11,515 bases of DNA, taken from a virus. The first letter of the stretch is position 1; each line of letters starts with the position of its first letter. Shown piece by piece: positions 1 through 10,690 of the stretch. A program made the position numbers and the translations under genes. Where the stretch lies: UHGV virus genome UHGV-0113878; one strand, written 5' to 3'. The notes beneath the pieces are model-generated. The model worked only from the letters and a program-made list of their open reading frames with translations. It did not search any database and was not told the DNA's origin.

Positions 1-50
1 TCACAAAGTCACCTGTCACTCTTTCTGGCTGCCAGATAAGGATTGAGTAA
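1..50 (+). CDS. 3' end of an upstream late gene (partial; by position possibly the gp10-like tail hub/head completion gene)
   Basis: The frame ending at TAA 48-50 is open from the window edge (codons 3-5 onward, reading ...[15 protein letters not shown]). The stop overlaps the ATG of the next gene (TAATG), the same coupling used elsewhere in this operon. The product is inferred only from P22 gene order. Confidence 0.3.
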
Positions 51-1003
51 TGGCTGATTCGAATCTCAATGAGCCAGTAATCATCCAGGCTACGCGGCTC
101 GATACATCAGTCCTTCCACGCAATATCTTCTCGCAGTCGTATCTGCTTTACGTTATTGCACAGGGTGCTGATGTTGGTAACGTGGCTAACAAGGCTAACG
201 AAGCAGGGAAGGGGGCTTATGATGCACAGGTGAAGAATGATGAGCAGGATGCCACCCTTGCAGACCATGAATCCAGAATTGCTGCTGCTGAAGCAACTCT
301 CGTCAATCATGAACATAGAATCGCAACAGCGGAAAGCACTCTTGCAGATCATGAAACAAGGATTATGGCTGCCGAAACAGAGCTGGCTGATCACGAGACG
401 CGAATTGCTGCCAATGAATCTGAGTTAGCAGACCATGATGCGCGCATAACTCAGAATACAACCGATATCGACGCACTTGATACCAGGCTCGCAGCGGCAG
501 AGGGAAGTATTTCGACGCTACAAAGCACAGTTGGTGATCACTCAACAAGAATATCTGCGCTTGAGTATGCCACCACGCGCAAGAAATCAGAGGTTGTTTA
601 CTCAGGAGTATCTGTAACCATCCCGACAGCGCCGACCAACCTTGTTAGCCTGCTGAAAACGCTCACGCCGTCATCCGGAACGTTGGCACCATTCTTCGAC
701 ACCGTTAACAACAAGATTGTTGTGTTCAACGAGAACAAAACCTTGTTCTTCAAGCTGTCGATTGTCGGGACGTGGCCCAGCGGAACCGCCAACAGGTCAA
801 TGCAGCTAACATTCTCCGGTTCTGTTCCTGACACACTGGTCAGCAGTCGTAATGCGGCGACAACAACCGACAACATCCTGTTAGCTACGTTCTTCAGTGT
901 GGATAAAGACGGCTTTCTTGCCACAAATGGCAGTACGTTAACCATTCAGTCGAATGGTGCGGCGTTTACTGCCACAACCATCAAGATAATCGCGGAGCAG
1001 TAA
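50..1003 (+). CDS. Tail needle protein (P22 gp26-like) with coiled-coil shaft and C-terminal knob domain
   Basis: The N-terminus [43 protein letters not shown]...[12 protein letters not shown] closely matches the P22 gp26 tail-needle N-terminus as I recall it. It is followed by a heptad-type repeat region (aa 69-152) and a ~160-aa beta-rich C-terminal extension, as in Sf6/HK620-type knobbed needles. SD-like AAGGA sits about 6 nt upstream of the ATG. Confidence 0.85.
254..505 (+). repeat. Six tandem 42-nt (14-codon) coding repeats inside the tail needle gene
   Basis: Translated units are [14 protein letters not shown] / [14 protein letters not shown] / [14 protein letters not shown] / [14 protein letters not shown] / [14 protein letters not shown] / [14 protein letters not shown]. 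They are in frame and diverged at the nucleotide level, with an [AV][DN]HExRI core. Confidence 0.7.
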
Positions 1004-1458
1004 TGATTCAGTTCAAACCAACGCGAAACATCGACCTGATCGAAGCAGTAGGAAATCACCCTGACATTATCGCCGGGAGCAACAACGGTGATGGATACGA
1101 CTACAAACCTGATTGCCGTTACTTTGAGGTGAACGTGCACGGGCAGTTCGGCGGCATTGTTTACTATCAGGAGATTCAGCCGCTGACATTCAATTGCCAC
1201 GCCATGTACCTGCCAGAGATTCGCGGCTTCAGCAAGGAAATCGGGCTGGCGTTCTGGCGATACATTCTGACTAACACCACTGTTCAGTGTGTCACATCGT
1301 TCGCTGCGCGCAAATTCCGCCACGGGCAGATGTACTGCGCAATGATTGGCCTTAATCGTGTAGGAACCATCAAGAAATACTTCAAAGGCGTGGATGACGT
1401 GACATTTTACAGTGCTACACGCGAAGAACTAATCGAATTCCTGAATCACGGGAGATAG
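1003..1458 (+). CDS. Phage protein at the gp14 position (between tail needle and ejection proteins); function not assignable from sequence
   Basis: A 151-aa ORF whose start overlaps the needle stop (TAATG). It keeps the gene order 26-14-7-20-16 of P22-like phages. No motif is recognisable; the protein is Cys/aromatic-rich. Confidence 0.6.
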   Translation: MIQFKPTRNIDLIEAVGNHPDIIAGSNNGDGYDYKPDCRYFEVNVHGQFGGIVYYQEIQPLTFNCHAMYLPEIRGFSKEIGLAFWRYILTNTTVQCVTSFAARKFRHGQMYCAMIGLNRVGTIKKYFKGVDDVTFYSATREELIEFLNHGR

Positions 1459-1460
1459 CC

Positions 1461-2153
1461 ATGTTATATGCATTTAAGCTGGGCAGAAAACTGCGCGGCG
1501 AGGAGCCTTATTGCCCTGAAAAAGGCGGGAAAGGTGGCAGTTCTGATAAAAGCGCAAAGTATGCATCAGAAGCTCAGAAGTATGCCGCAGACCTGCAAAA
1601 TCAGCAGTGGCAGACGATCATGAAAAACCTTGCTCCGTTCACGCCTCTTGCGGAGCAGTATGTTAACCAGCTTCAGAACCTTTCCAGTTTAGAAGGTCAG
1701 GGGCAGGCACTTAATCAGTATTACAACTCTCAGCAGTATAAAGACCTTGCAGGTCAGGCTCGTTACCAGAGTCTTGCTGCTGCGGAGGCTACGGGAGGAC
1801 TTGGTTCGACAGCCACAAGCAATCAACTGGCTACGATCGCGCCGACTCTCGGTCAGTCTTGGTTATCAAACCAGATGAGCAATTACAACAATCTGGCAAA
1901 CGTTGGGCTTGGTGCGCTGCAAGGTCAGGCAAACGCCGGGCAGACGTACGCCAACAACATGAGCAGCATTGCACAGCAAAGCGCAGCTCTTGCCGCTGCT
2001 AATGCCAACAAACCATCAAGTCTTCAGACAGCAATTAGTGGCGGAACGTCTGGTGCGATTGCCGGTGCAGGTCTTGCCAGCCTTTTGGGAACATCAACAC
2101 CTTGGGGCGCTGGCATTGGTGCTGGTATCGGATTGCTTGGCTCGTTGTTTTAA
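1461..2153 (+). CDS. Ejection (DNA-transfer / internal virion) protein, gp7-position
   Basis: 230 aa, close to the ~229 aa of P22 gp7, and in the expected position. It is Gln/Ala/Gly/Ser-rich and ends in a glycine-zipper-like hydrophobic segment (GAIAGAGLASLLG...GAGIGAGIGLLGSLF). Confidence 0.75.
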   Translation: MLYAFKLGRKLRGEEPYCPEKGGKGGSSDKSAKYASEAQKYAADLQNQQWQTIMKNLAPFTPLAEQYVNQLQNLSSLEGQGQALNQYYNSQQYKDLAGQARYQSLAAAEATGGLGSTATSNQLATIAPTLGQSWLSNQMSNYNNLANVGLGALQGQANAGQTYANNMSSIAQQSAALAAANANKPSSLQTAISGGTSGAIAGAGLASLLGTSTPWGAGIGAGIGLLGSLF

Positions 2154-2162
2154 GGGGTAATC

Positions 2163-3494
2163 ATGGCTACTTGGCAAGGATCAAATGGCGGATTGTTGGC
2201 TGGTATCGGCGGCGTCAACTCAAACGCTCCGAGCGTAAATGACATCGGCAATACGCTTCAGCTTATCAGGCAGAACAATGATATTGAGCGTTCAGGTGCT
2301 AACAATGTTGGGCTGACTGCTTTGCAAGGTCTTTCAGGTATTGCGGGTGTTTTTCAGCAGGAAAAGCAGGCTCAGCGGCAGAAAGAATTTCAGCAGGCGT
2401 ACGCTAATGCTTATGCGTCTGGTGATCGCGGTGCTTTGCGTCAGTTGGCTACTCAATATCCAGACCAGATTGAATCCGTTCGTAAAGGCATGGGATTCAT
2501 TGATGAAGAGCAGCGTAATTCTATCGGCACCTTAGCGGCTGGCGCACGCCTTGCGTCATCGTCTCCAGAAGCAATGCAATCATGGCTGCAAAACAACGCC
2601 GGTGAGTTAGCTCGTGTTGGCGTTAATCCTCATGACGTCGCTCAGATGTACCAACAGAACCCGCGGCAGTTCGGCGAATTTGTCGATCACCTGGGGATGA
2701 ACAGTCTCGGGCCAGAAAAATACTTTGACCTACAGGATAAAATGCAGGGTCGCCAGGTGACCATGCGCGGTCAGGATCTGGATTCGCAAACCGCCGCCCG
2801 GAATCAGGCAATCACAATGCGTGGGCAAGATATCCAGGCAAATTTAGGTCAGCAGCGCATTAATCTGGACGCAGAAACAAACCGCATTAACAACGAAAAT
2901 AAGCACCTTGACCGGATGCTATCAGCAGAAACTAACGACCTGAAGCGCCAGGAAATACAGAGCCGCATAGCAGCCAACAACCAGAAGTTGCAGCAGAAGC
3001 AGCAAGAGCTAAATGATGGCTACAAAGACGGCATCAACACTCTCACAACCAGCATGTTCACTCTGAACGATATCGTTAATTCTCCTGCACTTAAGAGCAT
3101 TACAGGCTTGCGTGGAGCAATCCCCAACGTTCCAGGCTCACAAGCTGCAGACACTCAGGCGCGACTTGATACCTTTAAATCCCAAGCATACCTGACAGCG
3201 GTTCAGGCCATGCGAGGCATGGGCGCACTTTCTGATGCCGAGGGCAAAAAGCTCGACCAGGCTGTTGGTTCGCTGCAGAACTCACAGAGCGAGGAGTCCT
3301 TTCGTCGCAACGCTGGCGTCATCCTGAACACGCTCAACCAGAAGCGTAATGAGGCGGTTGGTAAGTACGTTCAGCAAAACGGTATCAAGCGAGTGGAAGC
3401 GCCTCAGGCTTCTATAGATTACCTGAAGCAGCACCCCGAGCTGTCAATCGACTTCATTAATCGCTACGGATATCTTCCATCTTTGGGGCAGTAA
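2163..3494 (+). CDS. Ejection (DNA-transfer / internal virion) protein, gp20-position
   Basis: A 443-aa ORF with a good SD (AAGGGG) upstream. It is Gln/Asn-rich with an internal repeat ([VI]TMRGQD[LI]) and predicted coiled-coil character. Assignment is by size and synteny. Confidence 0.7.
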   Translation: MATWQGSNGGLLAGIGGVNSNAPSVNDIGNTLQLIRQNNDIERSGANNVGLTALQGLSGIAGVFQQEKQAQRQKEFQQAYANAYASGDRGALRQLATQYPDQIESVRKGMGFIDEEQRNSIGTLAAGARLASSSPEAMQSWLQNNAGELARVGVNPHDVAQMYQQNPRQFGEFVDHLGMNSLGPEKYFDLQDKMQGRQVTMRGQDLDSQTAARNQAITMRGQDIQANLGQQRINLDAETNRINNENKHLDRMLSAETNDLKRQEIQSRIAANNQKLQQKQQELNDGYKDGINTLTTSMFTLNDIVNSPALKSITGLRGAIPNVPGSQAADTQARLDTFKSQAYLTAVQAMRGMGALSDAEGKKLDQAVGSLQNSQSEESFRRNAGVILNTLNQKRNEAVGKYVQQNGIKRVEAPQASIDYLKQHPELSIDFINRYGYLPSLGQ

Positions 3495-5888
3495 ATGGCT
3501 AATTACCGTGATTTGTTAGAGCAGGCTGGCGCACGTTACGGTGTGCCAGAAGGGTTGATGACTGCACTGGGTGCCAAGGAGTCTTCTTACAACCCTGCCG
3601 CAGTAAGCTCCGCCGGGGCTGTAGGATTGACTCAGGTCATGCCTGGGACATGGCGTGATATGGGTTATACCGATGAGCAAATGCAAAACCCCGAATATCA
3701 GGCTGACGCTGGCGCGCGCTATCTGGCAAAGATGTACCAGCAGTTTGGTAACTGGCGTGACGCTCTTCAGGCTTATCACGACGGTCCCGGCAACGTTATG
3801 AAGGCAAAGCGTGGTGAATATACGCCAGGACCTGAAGGCCGCGGTTACGTTGATGATCGCTTTGCTCAATGGGCTGGTGACCCGGTGACAGACTCAACAG
3901 TCGAACAGCGCGCCACCTCTGCAAAGGTACATCCTCAGCAAGACCCTAACAACCCGTTTGCACAACTGGAAGTACAGTCATCCGAACAAGTATCGGCATC
4001 AGGTGTGCAGTCAGACCCAAATAATCCATTTGCTCAGATTGAGCAGCAGGCAGCCAGTCAGCAGCCACCTCAACCCGTAAGTTCTGTCGCACCGAAACCT
4101 GTTCAGCAGCAAGGCGGAATAATGTCTGACCTTGGTAATGGACTTGCTGAAACCGGGCGCGGCTTACTACAGGCAGGAATCAACGTAGCGAACATACCTG
4201 CTGAACTCACTGATGCTGTAACAAGCGCGGCGGCTTGGGCTGGCGGTAAACTCGGCATTGGCGATGGTACATATCAACCAGCGCCACGAGTAACAACGCA
4301 GGGATTAGAGCAGGACTTTGGCCTTCAGCAAGGCGCGCTGACTCCACAAACGACAGAGGGAAGGGTATTTGCTGAAGCATTGCCTTACCTCACTCCTGCT
4401 GGCGTTGAGAGAGCGGCGGTACAGGCACCAACACTTGCTGGTCGAATTGCTCAGGGGGCAACTCGCCTTCTAGCAGAAAACGCAGTTGGATCACTTGCTG
4501 CAAACAGTATGAAAGATGATGCTGAAGCACTCGCTACCGATTTAGGCGTTGGTGTGCTGGCTGGCGGTGCTATTAACGCTGCCGGACGTGGATTAGGTGC
4601 TGCTTATCGTGGCGTTCGTGGTGCTATTGCGCCAGAAGCGCAGCAGGCTATCAGATTTGCAGAGCGTGAAGGAGTTCCTCTGCACACCACAGACCTGTTA
4701 CAGCCTACTTCCCGCGTCGGGAAAATGGCGCAGACGACAGCGGAAAATATCCCCCTGGCTGGCACAAGCGGAATGAGAGCAACGCAACAGGAAGCGAGAA
4801 GCCAGTTGGTGCAGAGATTTGCTGATAAATTCGGTGAGTATGATCCAGCTGTTGTTATTGACAGCCTTAAAGCGAAAACATCAGGAATTCGTCGTGCTGC
4901 AGGGAACCGTCTTGAGCAGGTTCAGAATGCAATGGCGGGAGTCAATATCCAGCCTGCTCGAGCAATTCAGCAGATTGATACAGAAATATCTAACCTGCAG
5001 AAGCTTGGTAAGGTCGCCGATAACGAGACTATTTCAAAACTTCAGTCCTATCGTGATGAGCTTGTTCGCAATGCTGGTCCTGATGGTCCGGTAAATCTGG
5101 ATTTGAAGCAATTAAGCGATCTGCGCAGCCAGTTCAGAATGGACGTGAAGGGGGAACGACCAGTGTTACCAAACCGGTCCGATGCTGCCATTCAGCGCGT
5201 TTACAAGGCAATGACAGACGATATCAATGGTGCCATTGGTCAGAATCTTGGCAACGATACTCTCCGTAAATATCAGCAGGCCAATGCCGTCTACGCTGAC
5301 GAAGCGGCGAAACTAAAGAATACCAGGCTGAAGAATGTTCTCATGAAAGGCGACCTGACGCCGGAAGTTGTCAACAACATGCTATTCAGCAAGAACAAAT
5401 CGGAAATTAAGACGCTGTATAACTCAGTTGGTCGTGTTGGCAGGGCGCAAATGCGCAATGGCATCATTGGAAAGGCGATGGAGAAATCAGGTGGTTCCCC
5501 TGACCAGTTCCTTCGACAGCTTAACATCCTGCAAAACCAGACTGGCATCACATTTAAAGGTCAGGAAGCCGCTTATCTGAAAGGATTAAAAAACTACCTG
5601 CAATCCACGCAGCAGGCTGCAAAAGCGGCAGTAACAACACCCACAGGGCAGCAAACTATCCCGTTCATTATTGGGTATGGGACGGCAATGAACCCGGCGA
5701 CAACTGGCGCAGCAGTAAGCTACGGACTTCTTGCTCGCGCCTATGAGAGCGAGCCATTCAGAAATGCAATGCTCCGAATGGCAAACACCCCACGCGGATC
5801 AACAGCGTTTGAGAAAGCCATGCAGCAGGCACAAAAGGCAATTAACGCTATGACGCAGGGGGCTAAGTCTGATGCGTTGTCAGAATAG
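3495..5888 (+). CDS. Ejection protein (gp16-position) with N-terminal family-1 lytic transglycosylase (SLT) domain
   Basis: The N-terminal ~110 aa carry the three classic SLT motifs: AKES (catalytic Glu29, nt 3579-3581), GLTQVMPGTW, and AYHDGPGN. A linker with two DPNNPFAQ[LI]E repeats and a long Ala/Gly-rich body follow. The ATG abuts the upstream stop (TAAATG). Confidence 0.85.
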   Translation: MANYRDLLEQAGARYGVPEGLMTALGAKESSYNPAAVSSAGAVGLTQVMPGTWRDMGYTDEQMQNPEYQADAGARYLAKMYQQFGNWRDALQAYHDGPGNVMKAKRGEYTPGPEGRGYVDDRFAQWAGDPVTDSTVEQRATSAKVHPQQDPNNPFAQLEVQSSEQVSASGVQSDPNNPFAQIEQQAASQQPPQPVSSVAPKPVQQQGGIMSDLGNGLAETGRGLLQAGINVANIPAELTDAVTSAAAWAGGKLGIGDGTYQPAPRVTTQGLEQDFGLQQGALTPQTTEGRVFAEALPYLTPAGVERAAVQAPTLAGRIAQGATRLLAENAVGSLAANSMKDDAEALATDLGVGVLAGGAINAAGRGLGAAYRGVRGAIAPEAQQAIRFAEREGVPLHTTDLLQPTSRVGKMAQTTAENIPLAGTSGMRATQQEARSQLVQRFADKFGEYDPAVVIDSLKAKTSGIRRAAGNRLEQVQNAMAGVNIQPARAIQQIDTEISNLQKLGKVADNETISKLQSYRDELVRNAGPDGPVNLDLKQLSDLRSQFRMDVKGERPVLPNRSDAAIQRVYKAMTDDINGAIGQNLGNDTLRKYQQANAVYADEAAKLKNTRLKNVLMKGDLTPEVVNNMLFSKNKSEIKTLYNSVGRVGRAQMRNGIIGKAMEKSGGSPDQFLRQLNILQNQTGITFKGQEAAYLKGLKNYLQSTQQAAKAAVTTPTGQQTIPFIIGYGTAMNPATTGAAVSYGLLARAYESEPFRNAMLRMANTPRGSTAFEKAMQQAQKAINAMTQGAKSDALSE

Positions 5889-6052
5889 CTTCGCAAACAC
5901 CAGGAACGTGCAAAAACCAAATATATAGAGCGCAATATTCAACAGATCTCTTTGCATAGACTCATCTCATAATTAACAAATCATAACTGACATTAGTGCA
6001 ATGCAGGGCAAGTTGCATCTTGTTCAGCATTGCTACGTCTGGAGCAAATTAA

Positions 6053-8452
6053 ATGACAGATATTACAGCCAATGTTGTAGTGAGTATGCCTTCGCAACTC
6101 TTCACTATGGCGCGTTCTTTTAAAGCGGTTGCCAATGGCAAAATTTATATCGGTAAAATTGACACTGACCCGGTAAATCCTGAAAACCAGATTCAGGTTT
6201 ATGTGGAGAACGAAGACGGTTCTCACATTCCTGTTTCTCAACCAATCATCATTAACGCTGCTGGATATCCGGTATATAACGGGCAGATTGCCAAATTCGT
6301 AACTGTTCAAGGCCATTCTATGGCTGTATATGATGCATATGGCACTCAGCAGTTCTATTTCCCTAATGTGCTGAAGTATGACCCGGATCAGCTACGGCAG
6401 CAGTTAGAAGACCCGGATGGTGCTAAAAAATATCCCGAATTGCAGATTGCACGATGGCGTGATGACAAAGATGTTCGCGGTTGGGGGGCTATCAGTGATG
6501 GAATAACTGACGCTACTGAGGCATTCTCTAACGCAGGCTATAGAATGTTTGTTCCTGATGGCGATTTTGCAGTAAATACTCTCGAAGTTGATGTATCTTC
6601 TGTTCAAGGTATTGGGAGGATTGTTGCTGATAATGGATCTCTTATTTCAGTTTCTCGTCTACTTGAAACTGACAAACTTGTGCAGAGAAAAATGATGGAA
6701 CCTTTTTTTGGTTTTCAGGGAGAAACAAACACAGAAATTTATCCTAATGCCAGAAATGCGTTACAGGGGATCGCATATTGCCGTGTTAATGGCATTGAAA
6801 AACTATTTGTCACACAACGGCCTGTTGGGCCAACCTGGTCAGATAAAGAAAGAGTTCGTATTGTTGAGTTTAATCTTTATGATGATGGAAGGGTAGTAAA
6901 CCATGTTGCGTATTCTCCAGAATTAAACCTTGGGCACGGATTTGATCTTTCTGCCATGGTGGAGAATGGTCAAGTATATTTATATACATCAAGTGTAACC
7001 AATTCAGGTGAAGATGGGGAGTCTGCAGGCAAAGGGTTTAGTAAAATAACTTGGCGAGGGGCAGGAACAACTCAGTCTGACGTAAAAAGTTATAATGTAT
7101 GGGGGATTACTGGTAGCGGTCACCCATTTCAAGATTACAATCGTGCAGGAATTGCCATTTCTTCTGACGGTCGTCTTTTAATAATGGTTAATACACCAAA
7201 GAGTGATGCCGCTAAACGAACTGTATTTATATACGATAAAATATCAATTGATAAACTTGAAGATAAAACATTAGCAAACCCCATGTTTGTTTGGGAAATG
7301 AGCGACTCACCTTCTGAAGGCGCTTACTCTGTACAAGGTATTGCGTCTGATGGAAGATATATACATATACTTAAGGGAGGCACTAATGCTTTTGGAAAGC
7401 ATCATATCTTTACATATGATTTAACAGGTAATTTACTAAGAAAATTAGATATCGATGATGCAAGGTCGCAATATGGGCGCGATGGGTTGCTTAACCATCC
7501 AACTCTTGGGAATCCAGCCAGATTCGAGCCGGAAGGTTTAACTATTCGTGGCGAAGAAATAATTATAAGCTGCATAGAAACATGGAGGGCAGGAGCTAAT
7601 ATTGTAAACTGGCGTGGAAGAAGATGGGCTGCATCATCCATTGAGACTTCTGGAATAATTGGTGTCCCTCCATCAAATGGCTCTTATTGGGTAGAAACAA
7701 CCAAGGATGCAAATTCTGGAGACTGGAGTCCTGATACAGATTATGGATGGGGAAGTAGCTATTCTCTTGAGAAAAAGACAATTTACTCTATACGACCAGC
7801 GACTGGTAACAACGATGAGCAGAACCTTAATTCTGGCATAACCAATGCTTCAAGTAATGCAGGTGTAGATGCCGGAGAAAGCGGGCGAAATATATCATTT
7901 AGATGGCGCAATGCTTTTAATATTGTTGCATTTAGCGAACGTCTTGGTGAGTACTTCAAAGCTATTATGTATGATAATAGCTCAAGATTAAGAATATACG
8001 ATCAGCAAAACGGTAGTGATAACACTGTTTATGGCTCAATCCAGGCACTATTTACGTCATCATTTAAGGGATTGATTTTAAGGGGTAGGGGGGTATCAGC
8101 ATCAAATAGTTCCTATATTAGGTTACATTCATCTGATGATCCAAACTACCCAAATTCGATCATTGAAGGAACAAGAACAGATGGAAGTTTTTCCAGGGAA
8201 ACAGATTCAAACGGAACCACTACATTTGCATCGGACTCAGAGCACGAACCGTTGCGTATCAGAAGGGCTTCAGATGGTTTGTTGTTTGCATACGAGAAAG
8301 TAAGAGGTACAACTCTCTTTGGAATTTATAGAGGCTCCGGTTCACCTGAGGGTGTTGTGACCGCACCTCAGGGGTCAATGTACATTGATTATAATGGTGA
8401 TTGGTATCAAAAGAAAACAGGAACAGGAAATACAGGATGGGTGTTAAAATAG
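6053..8452 (+). CDS. Tailspike protein: P22/Sf6/HK620-type head-binding N-terminal domain fused to a divergent receptor-binding (probable glycan-depolymerase) region
   Basis: The N-terminal ~113 aa ([50 protein letters not shown]...VLKYDPDQ) match the conserved head-binding domain of P22 gp9 and the HK620/Sf6 tailspikes as I recall them. The remaining ~690 aa are unrelated to the P22 beta-helix. GGAG sits 8 nt upstream of the ATG. The gene is markedly more AT-rich than upstream genes. Confidence 0.9.
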
Positions 8453-8532
8453 ACTATTCTATTTTAATTTTTCCCATTAATTAATGATGGGAATCCCAAA
8501 AATTGATAATACATCATCTATTTATAACTCAG

Positions 8533-8557
8533 CCACCTCATAGTGAGGTGGTCTTTT
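8533..8557 (+). terminator. Putative rho-independent terminator after the tailspike gene
   Basis: An 8-bp perfect stem CCACCTCA/TGAGGTGG with a 3-nt loop is followed by TCTTTT. A second, weaker similar hairpin (CCACC-TTG-GGTGG + GCTTTTA) lies at 8576-8595. Confidence 0.5.
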
Positions 8558-8634
8558 ACTGTTATCCCTAAATCACCACCTTGGGTGGGCTTTTACCAAT
8601 ACCAATGACAGTATTTTTGCTGTAAGAAAGTAAC

Positions 8635-8656
8635 AATAAACCATAAATGGTTTATT
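8635..8656. promoter_or_regulatory. Perfect 10-bp inverted repeat (AATAAACCAT-AA-ATGGTTTATT), candidate operator or regulatory site upstream of the lysis cassette
   Basis: The dyad symmetry is read directly from the sequence. It lies ~55 nt upstream of the first lysis-cassette start, in an AT-rich intergenic region. Function is inferred. Confidence 0.35.
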
Positions 8657-8701
8657 ATGCTTTGTGACTTACCATTTAGGAGGTTGTAATGCATATAAAC
8701 G

Positions 8702-9112
8702 GTGGAAAACATGTCAGCCCAACTAACCAGTGAAACTTTAAATCAGTGGCTTAGCATGAGTTCTCTGGCGGCGGTGATAGCAGGAGTTCCTCCTGAGGTT
8801 GCTTTGGGGGCTTTGGCTGGAGCGGTAATTTTTGTTACCTCTGCGGTAGAGTATCCCATTCGTCGTCGTGTACTCTTGTCGATGCTTAGCTTTCTCTGCG
8901 GCCTTCTTTTTTATAAACCAGCAGCATCAATTCTTATCGGCATAGCCAGCCTGATCCCTACTATCACGCAGGACTCTTTTGAAAAAGGGATTGTTTTCTC
9001 TGCTGGTGCATTCGTGTCAGCAATCGTCGCAGTTCGAATTGGCATCTGGCTCTATCACCGTTCCGATAATCCACGCGAGTTAATTCCGGGGAGAAAAGGC
9101 GATGGTAACTAA
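8702..9112 (+). CDS. Small multi-pass membrane protein, first gene of lysis cassette (putative holin/antiholin-like); likely true start at ATG 8711
   Basis: About four hydrophobic helices and a charged C-terminal tail ([18 protein letters not shown]). GTG 8702 has no SD, whereas ATG 8711 has GGTGGA 4 nt upstream. The 3' end overlaps the next gene by 11 nt. Confidence 0.55.
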   Translation: MENMSAQLTSETLNQWLSMSSLAAVIAGVPPEVALGALAGAVIFVTSAVEYPIRRRVLLSMLSFLCGLLFYKPAASILIGIASLIPTITQDSFEKGIVFSAGAFVSAIVAVRIGIWLYHRSDNPRELIPGRKGDGN

Positions 9113-9410
9113 TGAGCTTGTTTTGCTTATCACCAATGCACTTATTTGTACTGGCATAGCAATTCGTGTTGTCACATTCCGGCGTAACGGTTCACAACAT
9201 CGAAGATGGGGTGGCTGGCTTGCTTATTTTCTGATTGTTGCTGCGGCCAGTATTCCAGTTCGTGCTGTCTATGCAATCTGGCTACGCACGCCAATGGCTG
9301 TGGATTTATCTGAGGTCATTATCAACGCTGTCATGCTTGCTGCGGTTCTTAAAACTCGCGGTAACGTTGTTCAGATTTTCAAAATAACGAGGTCTAAACA
9401 TGGAGATTAA
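9102..9410 (+). CDS. Putative class-I-like holin (3 TM, N-out/C-in predicted)
   Basis: 102 aa with three hydrophobic segments, a positively charged TM1-TM2 loop (RRNGSQHRR) and a charged C-terminus ([19 protein letters not shown]). It lies immediately upstream of, and overlapping, the endolysin gene. Confidence 0.6.
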
Positions 9411-10029
9411 ACAATTCCAACGAGCTGCTGGTATTAGCGAGGTGCTGGCCGCACGCTGGTTCTCGCATATAACTTCTGCGATGAAAGAGTTTGATATCAG
9501 CAAACCAGAAGATCAGGCAATGTTTATTGCTCAGGTCGGGCATGAGTCTGGAGGCTTCACCCGGTTGCAGGAAAATTTCAACTACAGCGTCAGCGGACTG
9601 GCGAGCTTTGTCAGGACTGGACGCCTCACCCAGGGACAGGCTAATGCACTGGGGCGCCGTGCTGGTGAACCACCATTGCCACTTGAGCGCCAGCGCGCGA
9701 TCGCAAATCTGGTTTACAGCAAACGCATGGGTAACAATGCTCCCGGCGATGGCTGGAATTACCGTGGGCGCGGGCTTATCCAGATTACCGGTTTGAATAA
9801 CTATCGTGACTGCGGAAACGGTCTGAAAGTTGACCTGCTGGAGAATCCTGAACTGCTGGCGCAGGACGAATACGCGGCTCGTAGCGCGGCGTGGTTCTTT
9901 GCCAGCAAAGGATGCATGAAGTATACCGGTGATATTGCACGTGTAACTCTGATTATCAATGGTGGCCGGAACGGCATCGACGACCGGCGCGCGCGGTACG
10001 TCACTGCCAGTAAGGTGCTGGCTATATGA
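9400..10029 (+). CDS. Endolysin, glycoside hydrolase family 19-like (chitinase-class-I-type phage lysozyme)
   Basis: 209 aa with GH19-type motifs: GHESGGF...ENFNY (Glu49 at nt 9544-9546, Glu58) and [15 protein letters not shown]. There is no N-terminal signal or SAR hydrophobic segment. GAGG lies 7 nt upstream of the ATG. Size and motifs resemble the GH19 endolysins of Salmonella phages such as SPN1S, as I recall them. Confidence 0.88.
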
Positions 10030-10508
10030 TCTTAGCATTCGTAAAAGCATATCAGAAACAACTACTTATCGTGGTGATGCTTGCTGCTCTGTTCATCGTC
10101 GGAGTGGTTGCCTGGAATATACACGGCAGTCGCCAGTACGATGCCGGGTATGCGCAGGCGGAAGAAGACCGCAAAGACGAAGAAGACAAAGTTCGTCAGT
10201 ACTACGAACAGGAGAAAGTGACCAATGAACGTGAAGCGCAGCAGAGAATCGACCAGGCGCGCAATGATGCTCTTGATGCTGCCGCTCGCGCTGGCAGGTT
10301 GCAGCAACAACTCTTTGCCATCCGTGAGCAGCTCAGGCAGTATAACGCCATTGTCGGCGCTGGGACGTCAGCCGCAGACACCGGAGTTTTGCTTGCCGAC
10401 GTGCTCAGCAAATCTCTCGAGAGAAACAGACAACTGGCAGAGTATGCTGACCGGGCAGCCGAAGCCGGAAGAGTCTGCGAAAAACAGTATGACACCCTGA
10501 CAAGATAG
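10026..10508 (+). CDS. i-spanin (Rz-like): N-terminal TM anchor plus periplasmic coiled coil
   Basis: The start overlaps the endolysin stop (ATGA). An N-terminal hydrophobic helix ([18 protein letters not shown]) is followed by a charged, Gln/Arg/Glu-rich helical region. A complete lipoprotein ORF is embedded in the +1 frame. Confidence 0.8.
10225..10500 (+). CDS. o-spanin (Rz1-like outer-membrane lipoprotein), fully embedded in the i-spanin gene in the +1 frame
   Basis: Signal peptide with lipobox LALAG|C (Cys26, nt 10300-10302) and a Pro/Ser-rich mature region of ~66 aa. AGGAGA lies ~8 nt upstream of the ATG. The embedded layout matches the lambda Rz/Rz1 paradigm. Confidence 0.75.
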   Translation: MNVKRSRESTRRAMMLLMLPLALAGCSNNSLPSVSSSGSITPLSALGRQPQTPEFCLPTCSANLSRETDNWQSMLTGQPKPEESAKNSMTP

Positions 10509-10663
10509 CATGGCATTTTTCATGGTACTGATTTCCGGTGACGGTATATAAAACGGTACGGTGAAAATCATGTTGCAGGAAGTTGTTATCAGTCAATTGG
10601 TTATGGTATCCGTAAATAATTGAGTGGGAATGATTTTGATCCCTGCACTATGAATGAACAAAA

Positions 10664-10690
10664 CCCTCTGTTACTACAGAGGGTTTTTTA
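10664..10690. terminator. Bidirectional rho-independent terminator between convergent transcription units
   Basis: A 7-bp GC-rich stem CCCTCTG/CAGAGGG with loop TTACTA is flanked by an A-tract upstream (ACAAAA) and a T-tract downstream (TTTTTTA). It sits between the end of the + strand lysis cassette and the 3' end of the minus-strand gene. Confidence 0.7.

Follow-up and report, generated by a model that had tools for sequence, protein, structure and literature searches.

The virus genome UHGV-0113878 raises the question of why an AT-rich spacer with several dyad symmetries (positions 8453-8701) stands between its tailspike gene and its lysis cassette. The whole stretch of 11,515 nt that was analysed is referred to as the window, and coordinates are those of the window unless another genome is named. 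A preliminary description had listed four dyads in the spacer, had regarded them as terminator-like or operator-like, and had proposed either independent regulation of lysis timing or a recombination or module junction. Comparison with related phages and prophages suggests that the spacer is probably explained by three parts, namely the trailer of the tailspike gene, an empty cargo slot and the conserved control region of the lysis cassette. The four dyads do not form one regulatory device. The best-supported conserved structural element of the spacer is a different one, a leader RNA hairpin of the lysis cassette at 8650-8700.

All four dyads were recovered where they had been reported. Palindrome 1 (TTCCCAT-N9-ATGGGAA; 8471-8477/8487-8493) extends to a 9-bp stem in RNA with a folding free energy (dG) of -10.3. 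Hairpin T1 (CCACCTCA-TAG-TGAGGTGG; 8533-8551) extends to a 9-bp stem at 8532-8552 (dG -14.3) and is followed by CTTTTACTGT, and hairpin T2 (CCACC-TTG-GGTGG; 8576-8588; dG -7.1) is followed by GCTTTTAC. The fourth dyad is a perfect 10-bp inverted repeat, AATAAACCAT/ATGGTTTATT, at 8635-8644/8647-8656 (dG -7.5). T1 and T2 had been described as related, and they share the direct repeat GGTGG(T/G)CTTTTAC at a spacing of 37 nt. The dyads are denser than expected by chance. The RNA fold of 8440-8720 gave z = -4.4 on the plus strand, where none of 200 shuffles folded as well, compared to z = -2.1 on the minus strand, and first-order Markov simulations gave P ~3e-4 for three distinct perfect inverted repeats of at least 7 bp in the 249-nt spacer. 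The spacer has a G+C content (GC) of 32.5%, versus 48-56% across most of the remaining window. RNA folding, which had been proposed as a check, also revealed the leader hairpin at 8650-8700, which had not been listed previously. Two further hairpins on the plus strand had likewise not been listed, a perfect one of 10 bp that spans the tailspike stop codon (TTAAAATAGA/TCTATTTTAA; 8444-8467; dG -7.8) and a small one at 8608-8623 (ACAGTA-TTTT-TGCTGT; dG -6.1). A scan of 8300-8900 against Rfam at E values up to 10 returned nothing relevant; the best match reached 22 bits compared to a gathering score of 50, and all matches belonged to unrelated eukaryotic or other families. The open reading frames (ORFs) in the spacer comprise at most 39 aa and none is credible. 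All have non-ATG starts except two on the minus strand (23 and 39 aa).

Mosaic composition of the spacer

Homology to different groups of phages changes at defined positions in and around the spacer. Window positions 1-8469 are ~96% identical to virion genes of Gally (OV696608.1), a P22-like phage (Lederbergvirus), and the Gally tailspike is 97.6% identical across 6038-8480. Together with Gally, dozens of P22-like Escherichia coli prophages match the window through the tailspike to 8451, 8469 or 8480. Of 5426 complete E. coli genomes, only 5 contain the following segment, 8478-8630, in a form that is 100% identical, and no phage record contains it. In those five genomes, which include E. coli A0 34/86, EC21 and CEA601S, it lies inside ordinary epsilon15-like prophages, whose tailspikes match the window in the receptor-binding part, from 6497 onward. 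From 8627-8630 on, the sequence is common to 76 E. coli genomes and every Uetakevirus record retrieved. Here, 8627-10635 shows 92-95% identity to the lysis cassettes of Uetakevirus members such as HEMP4 and phiv142-3 and about 78-80% identity to those of epsilon15, phiV10 and SPN1S. Since the left flank is Gally-like and the right flank epsilon15-like, the spacer sits between modules of different ancestry. It seems likely that the spacer was assembled from three unrelated pieces, with a mosaic boundary where they meet. The proposal of a recombination or module junction is thus strongly supported by the sequence comparison, through the homology breaks at 8451/8469/8480 and 8627-8630 and the varied cargo found here in relatives.

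This cargo defines the second of the three parts. Among 80 loci in IMG/VR, the gap between the tailspike gene and the first gene of the lysis cassette, which resembles epsilon15 gp23, ranges from 111 to 2458 bp. The slot is occupied by gp21 and gp22 (O-antigen polymerase and its inhibitor) in epsilon15, an O-acetyltransferase (Oac) in phiV10, an acetylase in Tyrion, gtrABC in BUCT554, and small plus-strand ORFs in phiv142-3 (one of 99 aa) and a Klebsiella prophage; in relatives, the cargo is mostly on the opposite strand. Differing genes thus stand at one position between conserved flanks, as in a moron slot, and the phiV10 acyltransferase occupies a known moron position (PMC3573123). In the lineage of the window the slot is empty, and therefore this prophage lineage has no O-antigen-modifying gene in the slot used by its relatives.

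The left part of the spacer, from 8453 to about 8600, is the trailer of the tailspike gene. This gene (6053-8452, plus strand; Pfam Head_binding, E 1e-66) encodes a protein with a P22-type head-binding domain at its N-terminus, and its receptor-binding part (6497-8452) is common to P22-like and epsilon15-like prophages, with Uetakevirus prophages reaching 96-99.6% identity starting at 6497. Alignment of the sequence downstream of the stop codon with Gally showed that the stop-codon hairpin at 8444-8467 is shared and identical, and it belongs to the tailspike module. The terminator of Gally, CCACCTCC-ATT-GGAGGTGG-TATTTTATT with the upstream context GTTATCACTAAA, aligns to T1. T1 with its tail (8532-8562, plus strand) resembles an intrinsic terminator: its 9-bp stem contains 5 G-C pairs and closes a 3-nt loop, in agreement with the G+C-rich stem of at least 5 pairs and the short loop expected of such terminators, and the tail CUUUUACUGU has 5 U in its first 8 nt with a longest run of 4. 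Both hairpins had been called terminator-like. This description applies to T1, the only spacer hairpin to pass a terminator consensus scan, but not to T2, which was not flagged. T2 (8576-8596, plus strand) has a 5-bp stem, CCACC/GGTGG, and the tail GCUUUUAC, and its context TGTTATCCCTAAATCACC resembles the tailspike trailers of Gally and of loci L046/L047. Because both hairpins align with the Gally-type trailer, T1 and T2 can be read as a diverged tandem duplication of the terminator of the tailspike module, in which, judged from their stems and tails, T1 appears intact and strong and T2 appears to be a shortened, decayed second copy of the trailer/terminator unit. A hairpin with a T-rich tail within 110 nt past the stop codon was found by a crude scan in 33 of 43 distinct tailspike trailers, many of these hairpins being textbook terminators. 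It is probable that T1 acts as a working terminator of the tailspike transcript. The exact T1 sequence had zero matches in IMG/VR, and a degenerate T1 pattern matched only unrelated terminators of unrelated phages.

We also observed that 8552-8588, comprising the T1 tail and the T2 context, has a 36-nt match of 86% identity (E 0.04-0.1) in 480 plasmids, mostly of the IncI type; in R64, for instance, it falls in an intergenic stretch without annotation (31626-31661). This match is probably due to chance or to a similar terminator.

Between the stop-codon hairpin and T1 lies a lineage-specific block of 51 bp (8470-8520), which appears as a gap in the alignment of the window with Gally and contains palindrome 1 together with an inner palindrome, CATTAATTAATG, at 8475-8486. 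This block is extra compared to Gally and was seen only in the five E. coli prophages mentioned above. Exact searches for palindrome 1 returned zero matches in IMG/VR, in the species representatives of GTDB (one genome per species) and in JGI metagenomes, and the complete EC21 prophage contains no second copy. A 20-mer from the block matched only two Staphylococcus contigs, which we judged to be chance. The block shows no terminal inverted repeats, target-site duplication or multiple copies that would mark a miniature mobile element.

Some further features of the window and of its relatives were noted in addition. The tailspike receptor-binding part (6500-8450) has a GC of 38-44% compared to 48-56% in the flanking virion and lysis genes, in keeping with a cassette exchanged horizontally. 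Apart from the spacer, the tightly packed virion genes are interrupted only by a 165-bp gap at 5889-6052 upstream of the tailspike gene; at the corresponding place, Gally carries an Mnt repressor gene. In sister Uetakevirus prophages, a gene for tRNA-Arg stands between those for terminase and portal (EC21 prophage, L100 21749-21825; L009 26-102). The window itself is a low-coverage metagenome contig (ENA ERZ1742584, NODE_1263, coverage 4.7), in which P22-like virion genes are connected to a lysis cassette of the epsilon15 type and to the attachment flank guaA/yfgI. This join (around 6497-8627) was found in none of the 5426 complete E. coli genomes. Because the tailspike receptor-binding segment of roughly 2 kb is >99% identical between both prophage types, both an assembly chimera and a real recombinant are possible, and the contig may be a chimera assembled across the tailspike repeat or a true recombinant.

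A conserved leader hairpin in the control region of the lysis cassette

The right part of the spacer belongs to the control region of the lysis cassette (8627-8710), which is conserved across Uetakevirus. Its leader RNA hairpin (8650-8700, plus strand) comprises about 21 pairs with three interruptions (dG -15.5), and the 3' arm of the 10-bp inverted repeat forms its base. In epsilon15, GGUUUAUUGUGUAUGAUGAACUC pairs with GGGGUUCGUUAUGCACAGUAAAC to give 22-24 pairs and -33 kcal/mol, and the GenBank record of epsilon15 marks exactly this stretch (24755-24817) as 'RNaseIII', mRNA processing, which is a prediction. Folding 48 leader variants one by one showed that almost all fold alike while the sequences of the upper stem differ, and in the epsilon15 clade the stems have 22-24 pairs, one bulge and a dG of -24 to -33. 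A covariance model was built from ten sequences of the epsilon15 clade, and it matches the window at 8648-8705 with an E value of 2e-6. In an alignment of 40 distinct sequences, 93.3% of the cells were standard pairs, versus 37-56% if the partner was slid by 1-3 columns. Changes on both sides occurred in 9 of 24 pairs and in 45 cells, a cell count that 0 of 500 shuffles reached. These counts lean towards structure, as they come from related sequences in an alignment that had been fitted to the model. The strand asymmetry of folding is independent of the fitted alignment. The mean fold was -20.9 kcal/mol on the plus strand and -9.2 kcal/mol on the minus strand, and the plus strand was more stable in 39 of 40 sequences. 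This asymmetry is expected of an RNA that uses G-U pairs and not of a DNA site. Our data indicate that the leader hairpin, of ~24 bp across the genus, is a conserved structured RNA element that is supported by covariation and specific to one strand.

The 3' arm of the hairpin contains a strong Shine-Dalgarno sequence (SD), AGGAGG at 8678-8683, and the ATG of an upstream open reading frame (uORF) of 14 codons (ATG 8689 to TGA 8733; element 8678-8733, plus strand; peptide MHINGGKHVSPTNQ), which overlaps the start of the gp23-like gene by 23 nt. A uORF preceded by an SD is present in 43 of 52 unique leaders, and 42 of these uORFs overlap the gp23 start; three lineages lack a uORF. The peptide is not conserved, since the uORF of the epsilon15 clade has 12 codons in a different frame. 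A weaker SD, GGTGG at 8701-8705, belongs to the gp23-like gene itself and lies just beyond the hairpin stem. An in-frame GTG at 8702 was considered as a dual start of the lambda S type and rejected; the charge of the two additional residues is not conserved, and this GTG is probably only part of the SD.

The only promoter-like site of the spacer consists of sigma70-like hexamers, GTAACA-17-TATTAT (8630-8658, plus strand), which match the consensus at 9 of 12 positions in a promoter scan, have a spacing within the 16-18 bp of sigma70 promoters and start at the left edge of the block conserved in the clade of the window. The same hexamers are present in 15 of 15 leaders of this clade. At the equivalent position the epsilon15 clade has TTAACC/TTATCC-17-TATGAT and phiV10 has TTAACC-17-TATAAT; epsilon15 itself has only the weaker ATTCCA-16-TATGAT. 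Hexamers at this position were found in nearly all of the 52 leader variants. The hexamer match alone is weak evidence, because the scan of the whole window gave fewer sites than shuffled sequences (10 versus 14.6). The 3' arm TTGCTG of the small hairpin at 8608-8623 stands where relatives of the window clade have TTGACG or TTGACA.

The 10-bp inverted repeat (8635-8656) is perfect only in the sub-lineage of the window. It had been suggested that the repeat be sought in related phages. An alignment of 48 distinct leaders showed free variation in its 5' arm, whereas almost no variation was seen in the core CCATAWATGG, in the GGTTTAT(T/C)(G/A)TG that follows it or, farther downstream, in ATGCAyA(G)TAAACGGTGG. 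The conservation of CCATAWATGG/GGTTTAT and of the downstream stretch is explained by the long leader hairpin. The core is part of CATAAATGGTT (8642-8652, plus strand), a copy of an 11-nt recurrent Uetakevirus box, CATAWRWGGTT, which the perfect 10-bp repeat extends in a lineage-specific manner. The box was first recognised by eye upstream of gp3 and gp20 and then counted in epsilon15, phiV10 and the EC21 prophage; it is unannotated in the genome records examined. In epsilon15, CATATRWGGTT occurs exactly three times, upstream of gp3 (portal operon), gp20 (tailspike) and the lysis cassette, compared to 0.07 expected occurrences, and 0 of 100 shuffles reached three. Copies with one mismatch lie at two early-region sites, and phiV10 and the EC21 prophage carry the box at the same five places (epsilon15, L090: 2988, 19940, 24751, 33752 and 35953; phiV10, L105: 3308, 20921, 24739, 33135 and 35116; EC21 prophage: L100 22204, 12441 and 14410, L091 17402 and 20243). 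The window has only one copy because its virion genes are P22-like.

Nearly every copy of the box lies 7-45 nt downstream of the repressor operator ATTACC-N5-GGTAAT, a 17-bp dyad, with the lysis copy of the window-type spacer as the exception. Allowing up to 3 mismatches, this motif was found neither within 8453-8701 nor in the corresponding spacer of the EC21 prophage, which has ~15 such sites elsewhere. Upstream of the lysis box it is present in 0 of 15 leaders of the window clade versus 18 of 37 leaders of the epsilon15 clade. In epsilon15, an operator-like dyad with one mismatch to the motif, TTTACCATATGGGTAAT (24703-24719), lies between gp22 and gp23 and is unannotated in a record that marks seven other repressor sites. 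In the portal unit, the better hexamers, ATGTCA-17-AATCAT, would put the transcription start at the GG of the box, and a leader from that start would open with a 10-bp hairpin beginning at that G. With a start at the GG of the lysis box, as in the geometry of the portal unit, the long leader hairpin would be 5'-terminal. A fixed role of the box in a sigma70 promoter was rejected, as its register to the best hexamers differs between units. A search of the palindromes for a regulon had also been suggested. Searches of epsilon15 with a 25-mer and with CCATWWWTGG gave no further copies, and the EC21 prophage contains no further copies of the 10-bp repeat or of the 8608-8623 hairpin. The suggestion of a regulon is right in spirit, as the repeated element is the box and not a palindrome.

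Downstream of the spacer, the first gene of the lysis cassette (8711-9112, plus strand; Pfam Phage_holin_8, PHROG 198 holin) encodes a gp23-like putative holin with three transmembrane segments and 93-95% amino-acid identity to gp23 of epsilon15, phiV10 and Tyrion. Matches to Phage_holin_8 and Phage_holin_3_7 were obtained for the ORFs downstream of the spacer. Next come genes for a GH19 endolysin and for an Rz-like spanin (DUF2514) in which Rz1 is embedded, and beyond the spanin gene lie yfgI and yfgH of the host (minus strand). The lysis unit is closed by a strong terminator at 10660-10687 (plus strand; terminator scan) with a 12-bp stem, AAAACCCTCTGT/ACAGAGGGTTTT, which lies after Rz/Rz1 in the attR region, just ahead of host yfgI. 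The records of epsilon15 and phiV10 annotate terminators at the equivalent position.

Models of lysis control and competing explanations

If the spacer consists of a tailspike trailer, an empty cargo slot and a lysis control region, T1, perhaps aided by T2, would end tailspike transcription and shield the lysis genes from unprogrammed read-through. The lysis cassette would be a transcription unit of its own, bracketed by T1/T2 upstream and by the terminator at 10660-10687 downstream. The leader hairpin, which sequesters the strong SD and the uORF AUG, may control the cassette post-transcriptionally; cleavage by RNase III or opening by ribosomes might then expose the SD and link the start of translation of the holin-like gene to that of the uORF. 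Another possibility is that the hairpin stabilises the 5' end of the mRNA. In RNA of the window lineage, pairing within the 10-bp repeat would occupy GGUUUAU, which the base of the leader hairpin also needs. From the arrangement of the elements, three readings could apply: the box is a start site followed by a 5' hairpin, the box binds a regulator, or the hairpin forms only on read-through RNA, which it would make untranslatable or cleavable. The proposed independent regulation of lysis is plausible in light of the bracketing terminators, the hexamers and the shared box.

Several points weigh against this explanation, besides the bias of the covariation alignment mentioned above. The sigma70-like -10 hexamer lies inside the 5' arm of the leader hairpin. 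A transcript from that promoter would therefore form only the upper stem, and promoter and hairpin could not both act on one RNA unless transcription starts at or before the GG of the box. The hairpin of the window is much weaker than that of epsilon15 (-15.5 versus -33), and in the window lineage GGUUUAU can pair instead with the upstream arm of the 10-bp repeat. T1 has a run of just 4 U and T2 just 5 pairs. Since the operator is missing, silencing of the lysis genes in the lysogen is unexplained in the window lineage. Additionally, no Uetakevirus transcript maps were found in the literature, and terminator efficiency, start sites and RNase III cleavage are inferred.

Several other explanations were weighed against these data. 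One takes the segment 8470-8626 as non-functional debris of repeated recombination at a hot junction, with hairpins that have no role. The segment occurs in 5 genomes only and is 100% identical there, so that there is no evidence of selection; T2 is visibly decayed, the 51-bp block has no relatives, and some relatives manage with just 111-153 bp between tailspike and gp23. We consider this rather unlikely, as T1 is an intact copy of the terminator that accompanies this type of tailspike in other phages and, across 43 trailers, the tailspike stop is as a rule followed by a terminator-like hairpin. Another explanation gives the lysis genes no promoter of their own. The long virion transcript would pass T1 and T2, and the hairpin would be an RNase III site that frees the lysis mRNA, similar to the processing between T7 genes. 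It would account for the position of the -10-like hexamer within the 5' arm, since the full hairpin requires transcription from upstream of 8650, and it agrees with the 22-24 bp stem of the epsilon15 clade and with the annotation of the homologous hairpin as an RNase III site by the authors of the epsilon15 record. On the other hand, most tailspike variants put a terminator before the cassette, and in many relatives 1-2.5 kb of opposite-strand cargo intervenes. The box shared with the portal and tailspike units and the operator in 18 of 37 leaders of the epsilon15 clade are promoter-like, and Pfam and PHROG scans of epsilon15 gp49 gave only 'transcriptional regulator' and no antiterminator family. 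Taken together, dependence of lysis on read-through appears unlikely.

Closer to the preliminary description is the idea that the palindromes, chiefly the 10-bp repeat between the -35- and -10-like hexamers, bind a phage regulator that sets lysis timing. The repeat fits exactly into the 17-bp spacer of GTAACA-17-TATTAT and its core CCATAWATGG is conserved; the overlapping box recurs beside repressor operators at five places in three genomes, and for the box itself a DNA-binding protein is a fair candidate. Against the repeat as an operator, its 5' arm is unconserved outside the sub-lineage of the window, its 3' arm covaries with a downstream RNA partner using G-U pairs, which points to selection at the RNA level, and neither at the portal unit nor at the tailspike unit is the box palindromic. 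Palindrome 1 is confined to 5 prophages without a second copy in the EC21 prophage, and the known operator motif is absent from the spacer. Operator-like palindromes are thus not borne out, and regulation of this kind is quite unlikely. It is very improbable that the palindrome-1 block and T1 are a small RNA derived from a 3' untranslated region (3'UTR) or a miniature insertion element. The order of hairpin, A/U-rich stretch and terminator resembles 3'UTR-derived small RNAs, and the block is an insertion relative to Gally, but the U-tail is short, there is neither an Rfam match at E values up to 10 nor a credible ORF, terminal inverted repeats or a target duplication are not visible, and the collections searched contain no other copy. 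A wider and speculative extension of the composite reading, which we regard as unlikely to hold in full, is that epsilon15-like phages divide their virion and lysis genes into several units, with a box just downstream of a repressor operator as the mark of each, and that the lysis unit adds a hairpin timer that waits for RNase III or ribosomes to open it. The box would then be the site of a phage regulator or a start-site signal, and lysis would be timed by hairpin opening and not by a transcriptional cascade. In the window lineage, which would have lost the operator and gained the competing 10-bp stem, silencing in the lysogen would rely mainly on the terminators and the hairpin. Overall, the composite of tailspike trailer, empty slot and lysis control region is the explanation we prefer, and the interpretation in the preliminary description is partly supported.

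Comparison with known systems

A tailspike terminator, a cargo slot and a lysis leader that contains a putative RNase III hairpin are already present in this arrangement in the annotation of epsilon15. The comparison adds two modest new leads, namely comparative support for the leader hairpin, which the epsilon15 record had predicted, and a box common to the portal, tailspike and lysis units. Both bear on the control of lysis in a common prophage family of E. coli and Salmonella. For the window, the end of the tailspike module, the empty cargo slot and the lysis-cassette part of the spacer are now delimited. In reporter or therapeutic phages of the genus (phiV10, SPN1S), inserts usually go into exactly this slot, and both leads matter for their engineering.

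Like the window, epsilon15 (NC_004775.2) carries, in the same order, a tailspike gene, a rho-independent terminator and a lysis cassette (gp23-like gene, holin, GH19 endolysin, Rz/Rz1) by attP, and its gp23 leader is homologous, with box, hairpin, SD and uORF. It differs by 1.4 kb of opposite-strand serotype-conversion genes in the slot (gp21 O-antigen polymerase, gp22 inhibitor), by the operator-like dyad at 24703-24719 upstream of the box, which has no counterpart in the window, and by a hairpin about twice as stable, whereas the terminators of the window come from a P22-type tailspike module. Gally shares with the window the tailspike, the stop-codon hairpin and a terminator of the same family. 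The window differs by the additional 51-bp block and by a second copy of the terminator unit. Downstream of the Gally trailer stand a small ORF and the integrase region in place of a lysis cassette.

The leader of lambda N and T7 sites such as R18.5 are phage mRNA leaders that are processed by RNase III. In these leaders, an imperfect stem of about two turns stands directly upstream of a gene and takes in its ribosome-binding region, and cleavage can alter translation or stability. A processing site comprises roughly two turns (20 bp or more) of mostly continuous double-stranded RNA, compared to about 21 pairs with three interruptions in the window. The site in the window is a predicted one, and the sequestered SD serves an out-of-frame uORF and not the holin-like gene. 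In lambda S, the choice of start is modulated by the sdi stem-loop, which lies at the 5' end of the first lysis gene, so that the lysis clock is set at translation; the window has no in-frame dual start with a charged extension, and its alternative start opens a separate short ORF. Finally, moron slots of temperate phages are fixed sites with varied, often opposite-strand, host-modifying genes bounded by terminators. This concept has been described, and applied to phiV10, previously (PMC3573123). The slot described here follows the same plan across relatives, with the difference that in the window it is empty and only the joint between its two flanks is seen.

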